Positions 24,401 to 24,770 of a stretch of 64,000 nt of DNA are shown piece after piece (the stretch's first letter is position 1; each line of letters starts with the position of its first letter). The position numbers and the translations under genes are program-made. Below the pieces are notes generated by a model. That model searched no databases. It was given only the letters and a program-made list of their open reading frames with translations, and was not told the origin of the DNA. The stretch lies in NCBI GenBank assembly GCA_965249325.1, contig CBDFLP010000020.1, positions 321,428-385,427 on the forward strand, written 5' to 3'. The stretch is from Dehalococcoidia bacterium (lineage in GTDB: Bacteria; Chloroflexota; Dehalococcoidia; Lucifugimonadales; Australimonadaceae).

Positions 24401-24770
24401 CAGGAAGTTCCCCGTTAGGGTGAAAAAAGTTCCCCACCTCATTTTTGGTACGAGTAAAAAGTTCCCCGTTTGTCTGTTGTCCAGGCGTGAAAGTTCCCCG
24501 AAATCGCGGGGCGAGACAGGGGTTTTAGAGGGGACTTTTATGGCCGTGGCCTGCTTCCTGGGTCTCGGAACTTCCCGGTTCGAGAGAATTTGATGTTCAC
24601 GCGGCGAGCCCCCGCGCGAGGGGCACGGGCATAGGGGGTTGCCGCACCGGAGGGCGCAGGCGCCGGGGAGGAGGCAGTTCTCGTCTTTTGAGGAGGGCAT
24701 GGCAGGGGATTAATTTTACGAGGGGTTGGGGGTCTGGGGTAAGGGGCAAGTGTCGCAGTCGCTGCCCCGT
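24401..24770 (+). repeat. Non-coding module copy C with 33/34-bp sub-repeats (core AAGTTCCCC) plus a conserved scaffold shared with 56401-56815
   Basis: Shares CCGGGGAGGAGGCAGTTCTCG, TAATTTTACGAGGG, TGGGGTAAGGGGCAA, GGCCTGCTTCC and CCAGGCGTGA with copy D. AAGTTCCCC starts at 24405, 24427, 24459 and 24491. Confidence 0.85.

Follow-up and report, generated by a model that had tools for sequence, protein, structure and literature searches.

The non-coding stretches upstream of katG (copy A) and of a cupin-domain gene (copy B) were found to be collinear homologues and copies of one repeat family. We put the probability at roughly 0.55 that A and B represent a non-coding regulatory cassette, specific to this lineage and equipped with a promoter, of which about 40 copies are present and which is exchanged by recombination. 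The family is constrained, faces genes and does not code for protein, and the conservation of its motifs is well above the background divergence. With a gene-facing promoter-like signal and six evenly spaced boxes, it looks like a reusable gene-control cassette and not like junk. Below, the window denotes the whole 64,000-nt stretch of Dehalococcoidia DNA that was analysed.

Homologous non-coding stretches in the window

In blastn comparison, A and B shared 78.3% identity over 267 nt (24500-24759 against 56552-56809; E = 5e-48), and their repeat arrays 71% identity across 98 nt. MAFFT alignment showed the two to be collinear, with a mean column identity of 78%. A shared 21-mer pointed out in an earlier note on this DNA, CCGGGGAGGAGGCAGTTCTCG, occurred in the window only at 24663 and 56717 (0.01 expected by chance). 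The short direct repeats described there were also observed: AAAGTTCCCC was present three times, all within A (0.07 expected), AAGTTGTYG was present seven times, four of them in B (0.31 expected), and TRF detected a 33-bp period in B. The intergenic lengths of 588 bp (24228-24815) and 966 bp (56091-57056) were correct as given, and Pfam confirmed the flanking genes as encoding a catalase-peroxidase with two peroxidase domains and a cupin-domain protein; the katG start was corrected to 24227.

The earlier description of two copies was revised in number and extent. Homology breaks off sharply at 24756 and 56806 (...TGTCGC), after ...GGGGCAARTGTCGC, and four copies (A, B, C and D) are present in the window, C and D having been found via the terminal motif TGGGGKAAGGGGYAARTGTCGC (T motif). 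The REP-like modules said to end both copies were seen after B and were not obvious after A. Those beyond B include a perfect-looking 23-bp tandem repeat of three units (56880-56949; CGCGGGAACGACGGAGGGGAGGG), after which comes a GGTTCCCGCCTACGCGGGAATGAC hairpin module present in other REP composites as well, e.g. at positions 1-660 of locus L006 (three tandem composites of ~240 bp). Relative to the start codon of the downstream gene, A lies 170-530 nt and B 310-716 nt upstream. The features of the four copies are as follows.

24395..24756, minus strand (gene direction): whole copy A, upstream of katG, from alignment with B and 15 other copies
24736..24756, minus strand: T motif of A, GCGACACTTGCCCCTTACCCC, including the -35-like TTACCC; sharp outer boundary of the family
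24713..24718, minus strand: -10-like hexamer of A, TAAAAT, 17 nt past the T motif
24719..24756, plus strand: canonical G-quadruplex motif of A on the template strand, across the -35 to -10 interval
24663..24701, minus strand: conserved block of A, CATGCCCTCC...GAGAACTGCCTCCTCCCCGG, start of the putative leader
24569..24577, minus strand: box s6 of A, CGGGAAGTT in gene direction
24510..24565, minus strand: near-invariant central core of A with H box GGCCGTGGCC (24542-24551)
24405..24499, minus strand: four GGGGAACTT boxes of A at 24491, 24459, 24427 and 24405 (spacing 32, 32 and 22); one of the usual five is missing
24295..24324, minus strand: promoter-like site proximal to katG, TTCCCA-18-TATTAT, between A and the start codon
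22098..24227, minus strand: katG (catalase-peroxidase; Pfam), downstream of A
56395..56806, minus strand: whole copy B, upstream of the cupin gene; orthologues in L019 and L032
56786..56806, minus strand: T motif of B, GCGACATTTGCCCCTTACCCC
56764..56769, minus strand: -10-like hexamer of B, TAAAAT
56561..56617, minus strand: central core of B with H box GGCCGCGGCC (56594-56603)
56405..56629, minus strand: boxes of B, s6 56621, s5 56544, s4 56510, s3 56478, s2 56445 and s1 56423, with words CAAC/CGAC
56405, minus strand: degenerate extra (seventh) box of B
56151..56179, minus strand: promoter-like site proximal to the cupin gene, TTGACG-17-TAGTGT, read by eye
54897..56090, minus strand: cupin-domain gene (Pfam), downstream of B
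52225..52530, plus strand: copy C, diverged subfamily, upstream of sucC
52225-52245, 52263-52268 and 52420-52429, plus strand: T motif, -10 hexamer TATTCT and H box of C
52401, 52445 and 52509: words of C, TTCTTGAT/ATCAAGAA
about 1135..1498, minus strand: copy D, of the subfamily most abundant in OZ252088.1, upstream of a trypsin-like peptidase gene (3-1124, minus strand)
1478-1498, 1456-1461 and 1319-1326, minus strand: T motif, -10 hexamer TACCAT and H box of D
1278, 1303 (inverted) and 1360: words of D, AAGATGCG

Some further features were noted near these copies. Two inverted box-like units (24343-24358, ACGGGGACCT..., and 24374-24391, GGGAACTGTCCGGCGTGG) lie between the last box of A and the katG proximal promoter, and with the array of A they make up a large imperfect palindrome that was absent from the other copies examined. 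Two genes upstream of katG, an AhpC/TSA-redoxin domain is fused to a thioredoxin-like C-terminal domain (25851-27347, minus strand); the katG neighbourhood may be an oxidative-stress cluster, independent of the cassette. In the minus-strand peptidase gene next to D, long Pro/Thr-rich tandem repeats (700-1010) form the linker of a trypsin-like lipoprotein and give long spurious ORFs in several frames.

Size, distribution and orientation of the family

A 21-nt T pattern was used to scan one genome for each of 185,579 species. The scan returned 37 loci, 34 of which fell in two Dehalococcoidia MAGs, 22 in OZ252088.1 (one chromosome) and 12, with 13 matches, in CBDHDB01 (two contigs). A further four or five copies, either with a slightly diverged T motif or interrupted by an IS, came from profile searches of the fetched DNA. 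The family thus numbers about 40 copies, spread over three uncultured and related Dehalococcoidia genomes, the window belonging to the third; because the MAG sequence covered consisted of 8-kb pieces, copy counts are to be read as "at least". The three loci in genomes other than Dehalococcoidia lacked every other feature of the family, and their number fits the chance expectation. A metagenome scan gave two matches only, both AT-rich, attributed to chance and without any other feature of the family. Look-ups of exact proteins in search of more strains yielded no further contigs, and a literature search on intergenic or interspersed repeats of Dehalococcoidia gave nothing relevant among the results listed.

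Copies were oriented on the T motif and genes were called by third-position GC. Of 34 scorable cases, 30 had a box-side gene whose transcription leads away from the element (binomial p = 6e-6). On the T side, 21 genes were co-directional and 14 divergent, indicating that the bias is specific to the downstream gene and not a general strand bias. Four loci, three of them independent, had the opposite orientation. Being promoter-proximal and orientation-biased, the copies are not REP debris scattered regardless of gene starts, the case that the earlier note had named as refuting its proposal. Its suggested link to enzymes of O2 or peroxide metabolism was not upheld, the downstream genes being unrelated in function: they included katG, the cupin gene, sucC and a peptidase gene by Pfam, and gatB-, purA-, aldo-keto reductase-, amidohydrolase- and MFS transporter-like genes by their N-terminal sequences.

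Promoter-like end and leader

Read in gene direction, the copies open with the invariant 21-mer GCGACAYTTGCCCCTTMCCCC, which starts GCGACAYTTGCCCCTT(A/C)CCCC; this invariance is partly ascertainment, because the 21-mer served as the search pattern. At 16-17 C-rich nt past the 21-mer, a TAnnnT hexamer was present in all 40 of 40 copies, and it was also kept in three extra diverged copies. Eight different hexamers were observed (TACCAT, TAAAAT, TACCCT, TATCCT, TATTCT, TACGAT, TATCGT and TAAATT), and the neighbouring columns were variable. TAnnnT with a variable middle and variable neighbours is, at the sequence level, the signature of a -10 element. The candidate -35 element, TTACCC or TTCCCC at 17-18 bp from the hexamer, matches TTGACA at only 3 of 6 positions. 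A sigma-70-type promoter has a -10 hexamer with T1, A2 and T6 located 16-18 bp past a -35 hexamer; the copies show such a hexamer at a fixed distance and this weak -35 candidate. Judged by these motifs, the T motif and TAnnnT would together form a promoter firing into the downstream gene.

The spacer varies in sequence, yet two C runs were retained in 38 of 41 copies, and they create a canonical G-quadruplex motif on the template strand of the -35 to -10 interval in 37 of 41. The 64-kb window has ten G-quadruplex motifs in all, four of which lie in these elements. CATGCCC follows the hexamer by 9-12 nt in most A/B- and C-type copies. In gene direction, the leader has 35% C and 24% G, with C exceeding G in 35 of 38 copies.

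Since katG and the cupin gene have promoter-like sites of their own close to the start codon, the cassette promoter may be secondary or may not drive the gene. Two options follow: a distal promoter with read-through gated at the boxes, or boxes acting as upstream control of the proximal promoter. The boxes sit downstream, not upstream, of the putative start site, which counts against the cassette reading.

Core, boxes and subfamilies

Seventeen copies constitute the A/B subfamily. Past the promoter-like end, they show in order a variable stretch, box s6, a near-invariant core of ~46 nt (GGAAGCAGGCCACGGCCATGAAAACACCCTCCAAAACCCCCGTCTC) and boxes s5 to s1. Each box reads NNNN-AACTT, and the six per element are spaced by 77/78, 32/33, 32, 33 and 22 bp across the 17 copies. 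Every box position has its own conserved flanks, which marks the array as six fixed sites, as opposed to a tandem repeat of variable make-up. Six positionally fixed boxes fit the multi-site protein-binding platform that had been offered as one option for the module; the binding itself is putative.

Three classes of NNNN word were distinguished: GGAC/GATC, CAAC/CGAC and CGGG/GGGG. All six positions of an element belong to one class, with one hybrid element (L025); because the classes are largely clades, this uniformity represents only a few evolutionary events. Copy A is of the CGGG/GGGG class with five boxes, and copy B is of the CAAC/CGAC class with six boxes and a degenerate seventh. Copies of the C and D subfamilies have the T promoter and a GGCCGTGG box in common with A/B, and they differ in their words (ATCAAGAA, AAGAAT and AAGATGCG), which occur both direct and inverted. 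At L037 (4400-5087, oriented on T; CBDHDB01), a unit of the type of D in the window (AAGATGCG hairpin) stands in tandem with an OZ-type unit (AAGAAT words), so that this single cassette is a natural hybrid of two word types.

Several by-eye resemblances were considered and rejected, each fitting at most one word class or copy: DnaA boxes, sigma-54, ECF and sigma-B-type promoters, CRP/FNR and LexA half-sites, CsrA GGA motifs, methylation palindromes and the 16S 3' end.

Conservation at orthologous loci and exchange between copies

Only L019 and L032 were syntenic with the window, and both were occupied by the element. L019 was 95% identical to window positions 52183-56818, and L032 was 91-94% identical. 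In the three genomes, the elements stand at equal positions with equal flanks upstream of orthologous genes. Within a genome, the best paralogue pairs were 84-88% identical and the median was 65-67%; the motifs were nonetheless conserved. The family is therefore old and constrained, and not recently mobile.

Words of the CAAC/CGAC class are present at the cupin locus of the window and of L019, whereas all six boxes of L032 there read CGGG. The promoter half of these orthologues was 90% identical, the immediate flanks of s6 were unchanged, and the flanks overall were about 90% identical. With the words masked, the L032 array was similarly close to CGGG-class paralogues (0.83-0.84) and to its orthologues (0.80-0.82). 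Pairing of the box words with downstream sequence was considered and rejected, since the equivalent segment of the cupin locus is constant despite the changed box class. Box class also differs between L014 and L025, upstream of an orthologous 359-aa gene, and the promoter half of A is closest to an element of the GGAC class. As the nearest relatives differ by half, the halves have different histories, and gene conversion among dispersed copies is the simplest account of such mosaics as read from the sequences. In several D-type copies an internal REP insertion is present at one and the same site, indicating that whole units were copied after the insertion.

Neighbouring repeats and insertion sequences

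In 14 of 39 copies, the outer end of the T motif is directly adjoined by a member of a distinct, REP-like family (GGCCCCCTCTC[T]AACTCTCCCCCGCAGACGG...), which does not occur inside the A/B type. In the window its four members (1501-1524, 1647-1670, 52100-52123 and 52545-52568) all flank C and D; others lie by the T motifs of L003, L005, L007, L008, L018, L020, L023, L028, L030 and L036. This location at cassette boundaries suggests targeted insertion or functional pairing. The cassettes themselves do not form stable hairpins of the REP, REPIN or BIME type, their sole palindrome being the 10-nt GGCCGTGGCC.

At L006, an IS1595-family transposase gene lies just past the T motif, and the T motif was considered as the end of an IS. 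This was rejected, the IS having its own ends. The element is ~2.7 kb (729-3442) and encodes a transposase (818-1753), and at least one more ORF is predicted at 1965-2741 on the minus strand; its inverted repeats GGGAATTATATACAATCCTACCC and an 8-bp target duplication TAAAATTA were read in the sequence, the inverted-repeat tool having found no ends. These repeats and the duplication indicate that the IS was inserted in the -10 hexamer of an otherwise intact cassette. At L027 (4874-6247), an uninterrupted 415-aa ORF for an IS256-family transposase begins ~120 nt past the -10 hexamer of the cassette and interrupts that cassette. Next to D, a gene for the same transposase of the IS256 family (mutator type) is split into several ORFs (1677-3250, minus strand) and is probably a pseudogene.

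Proposed mechanism and alternatives

A regulatory cassette was among the options raised at the outset, and it is supported by the promoter-proximal location, the orientation bias (30/34), the orthologous loci in three genomes and the promoter-like -35/-10 arrangement. In the mechanism that we propose, the 21-mer would combine a weak -35 element (TTACCC/TTCCCC) with an upstream recognition site and, with TAnnnT 16-17 nt downstream, would act as a promoter directed at the gene; the template-strand G-quadruplex over the spacer may modulate it. The transcript would start with a leader of 300-450 nt, untranslated, unstructured and C-rich. In the A/B subfamily, the ~46-nt core and the six boxes, about two or three helical turns apart, would serve as a platform for a putative oligomeric sequence-specific factor, and this factor would control either the read-through that starts at the cassette promoter or the proximal promoter of the gene itself. 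The three word classes would correspond to different readers, and promoter and box halves would be reshuffled between copies by gene conversion, so that genes are re-wired. A stronger form of this proposal is speculative, and we hold it to be rather improbable: a plug-in promoter-operator system in which a G-quadruplex-switch promoter is joined to a six-box array, the 4-nt word addresses paralogous readers (protein or guide RNA), and conversion of the box half moves genes between regulons, as at the cupin locus.

An interspersed family with a sharp boundary may also be a selfish, non-autonomous mobile element. Its boxes would bind a transposase or recombinase supplied in trans, as at Tn7- or Mu-type ends, and the word classes would be lineages with cognate enzymes. 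The orientation bias would then result from selection against harmful insertions alone, and the promoter would be incidental. The stereotyped box spacing with its 77-78-bp gap resembling Mu L1-L2, the copying of whole D-type units after their common REP insertion, and the REP-like modules that abut the T end in 14/39 copies all agree with such an element. We nevertheless consider it unlikely. An inverted-repeat search returned no terminal pair, the two ends (GCGACAYTTGCCCC... and ...AACTTCCTCATCCGGCCCC) are unrelated, and there is no second end. An invertible promoter (inverton), which is flanked by inverted repeats, is likewise not supported, as no inverted copy of the T motif or of any flanking sequence was found. 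Nor was an associated transposase found, since the IS1595 and IS256 genes by T motifs are insertions into elements. All paralogue pairs are at or below 88% identity, so the near-identical copies that mark recent bursts of MITEs were absent among within-genome pairs. The earlier option of a non-autonomous element, taken as a classical transposon, is thus not supported. Moreover, the copies are stable at orthologous loci in three genomes, and motifs conserved amid ~65% overall identity point to constraint at the level of the host.

A device working at the RNA level is, in our estimation, rather improbable. Here the C-rich, unstructured leader would be a Rho-loading attenuator or a multi-site pad for an RNA-binding protein, with the boxes read as RNA (NNNNAACUUUUU every ~33 nt). 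The excess of C over G in the leader, reaching a C-G of 0.27 per nt in the best 80-nt windows, agrees with it, as does the absence of stable or conserved structure and of a conserved translated frame. The C-richness is, however, only moderate, averaging 0.108 per nt where random 350-nt windows have a 95th percentile of 0.146. Moreover, the palindromic H box and the invariant core resemble DNA sites more, and distances of 22 and 32-33 bp correspond to about two and three helical turns, which is naturally meaningful for DNA and not for RNA. A structured non-coding RNA gene or riboswitch-like leader, to which a long, non-coding stretch with conserved blocks upstream of genes might point, is very improbable. 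The elements had no Rfam match at the gathering threshold and a single match (E = 0.79) in a relaxed search; folding of single sequences on both strands gave z-scores of -0.01 and -0.55; in the 420-nt RNAalifold consensus of 14 copies, the energy was -6.8 kcal/mol and the covariation term -0.34, i.e. no conserved fold and almost no covariation; and the downstream genes are functionally unrelated. The suggestion of an unrecognised ncRNA, if a structured one is meant, is accordingly set aside.

That the module is a small protein-coding gene, with a 111-aa ORF at 24365-24700 and its counterparts, is hardly credible, and the ORFs called across it had already been taken for artefacts. Many copies do have an ATG 9-12 nt past the -10 element, and ORFs of 110-230 aa are open in 8 copies. 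Counted from the conserved ATG, however, the ORFs are 35 to 232 aa long, with many ending after 35-58 aa, and the frame is not conserved: frameshifts between copies give different peptides from equal DNA, the repeated boxes fall in three different frames, and 4 of 14 aligned copies have lost the ATG inside the core. A C-rich strand is, in addition, expected to keep open frames. Because spurious ORFs of 100-230 aa arise from the elements, annotators should mask them.

Comparison with known systems

If the promoter and the boxes are functional, the family would be a clear natural case of a modular cis-regulatory cassette that serves dozens of unrelated genes and is re-addressed by recombination, in a lineage that is narrow, uncultured and poorly known. 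It would then offer a test case for the spread of promoters within genomes, for a regulatory role of a conserved spacer G-quadruplex, and for the upkeep of identical words at six sites.

The pap switch of E. coli has six Lrp sites about three helical turns apart that are wrapped by an oligomeric regulator. The cassettes resemble this system and iteron arrays in having five to six short sites, ~22 or 32-33 bp apart, beside a promoter. They differ from pap in that the box sequence is unrelated to Lrp sites and the array, in three word classes, is dispersed over dozens of genes. An iteron origin or partition site, of which one per replicon is expected, was rejected: no rep or par gene lies near the cassettes, and the two MAG assemblies have at least 22 and 13 copies with the exact motif, next to ordinary metabolic genes. 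With Mu- and Tn7-like ends the cassettes share several identical sites in a stereotyped arrangement that co-vary as a set between element lineages, but a second inverted end, terminal TG/CA pairing, a transposase and recent copies are absent.

The Correia elements of Neisseria, ERIC and the BOX elements of pneumococcus are short, non-coding, interspersed intergenic repeats, some of which have functional promoters (see also PMC3575422); BOX is modular, with an internal repeated module and a variable number of boxB units. Families of this type have terminal inverted repeats or long hairpins and are inserted in both orientations. The cassettes are likewise short, non-coding, interspersed intergenic repeats and, like BOX, modular; they differ in the absence of inverted ends and of a stable hairpin, in the fixed spacing of six boxes and in the strong gene-directed orientation.

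Putative mobile promoters (PMPs) are homologous non-coding regions upstream of unrelated genes in one genome, and were proposed to re-wire transcription (Matus-Garcia, Nijveen & van Passel 2012; commentary PMC3575422). They are without an Rfam match, are defined operationally by at least 80% identity over at least 50 nt within -150 to -50 of the start codon of non-paralogous genes, and form families that are mostly pairs (PMC3575422). The cassettes agree with the concept, with homologous upstream regions, unrelated downstream genes, gene-directed orientation (30/34) and a blank in Rfam. They fall outside the operational window, being located at about -130 to -700, with most pairs ~65% identical and A and B 78% identical over 267 nt, and they form a family of ~40 copies with a defined internal grammar in place of pairs. 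The nearest concept is thus the putative mobile promoter, together with the promoter-bearing intergenic repeats Correia, ERIC and BOX, and the family is distinguished from these by its fixed six-box array with class words, its invariant core and its G-quadruplex-bearing promoter spacer.
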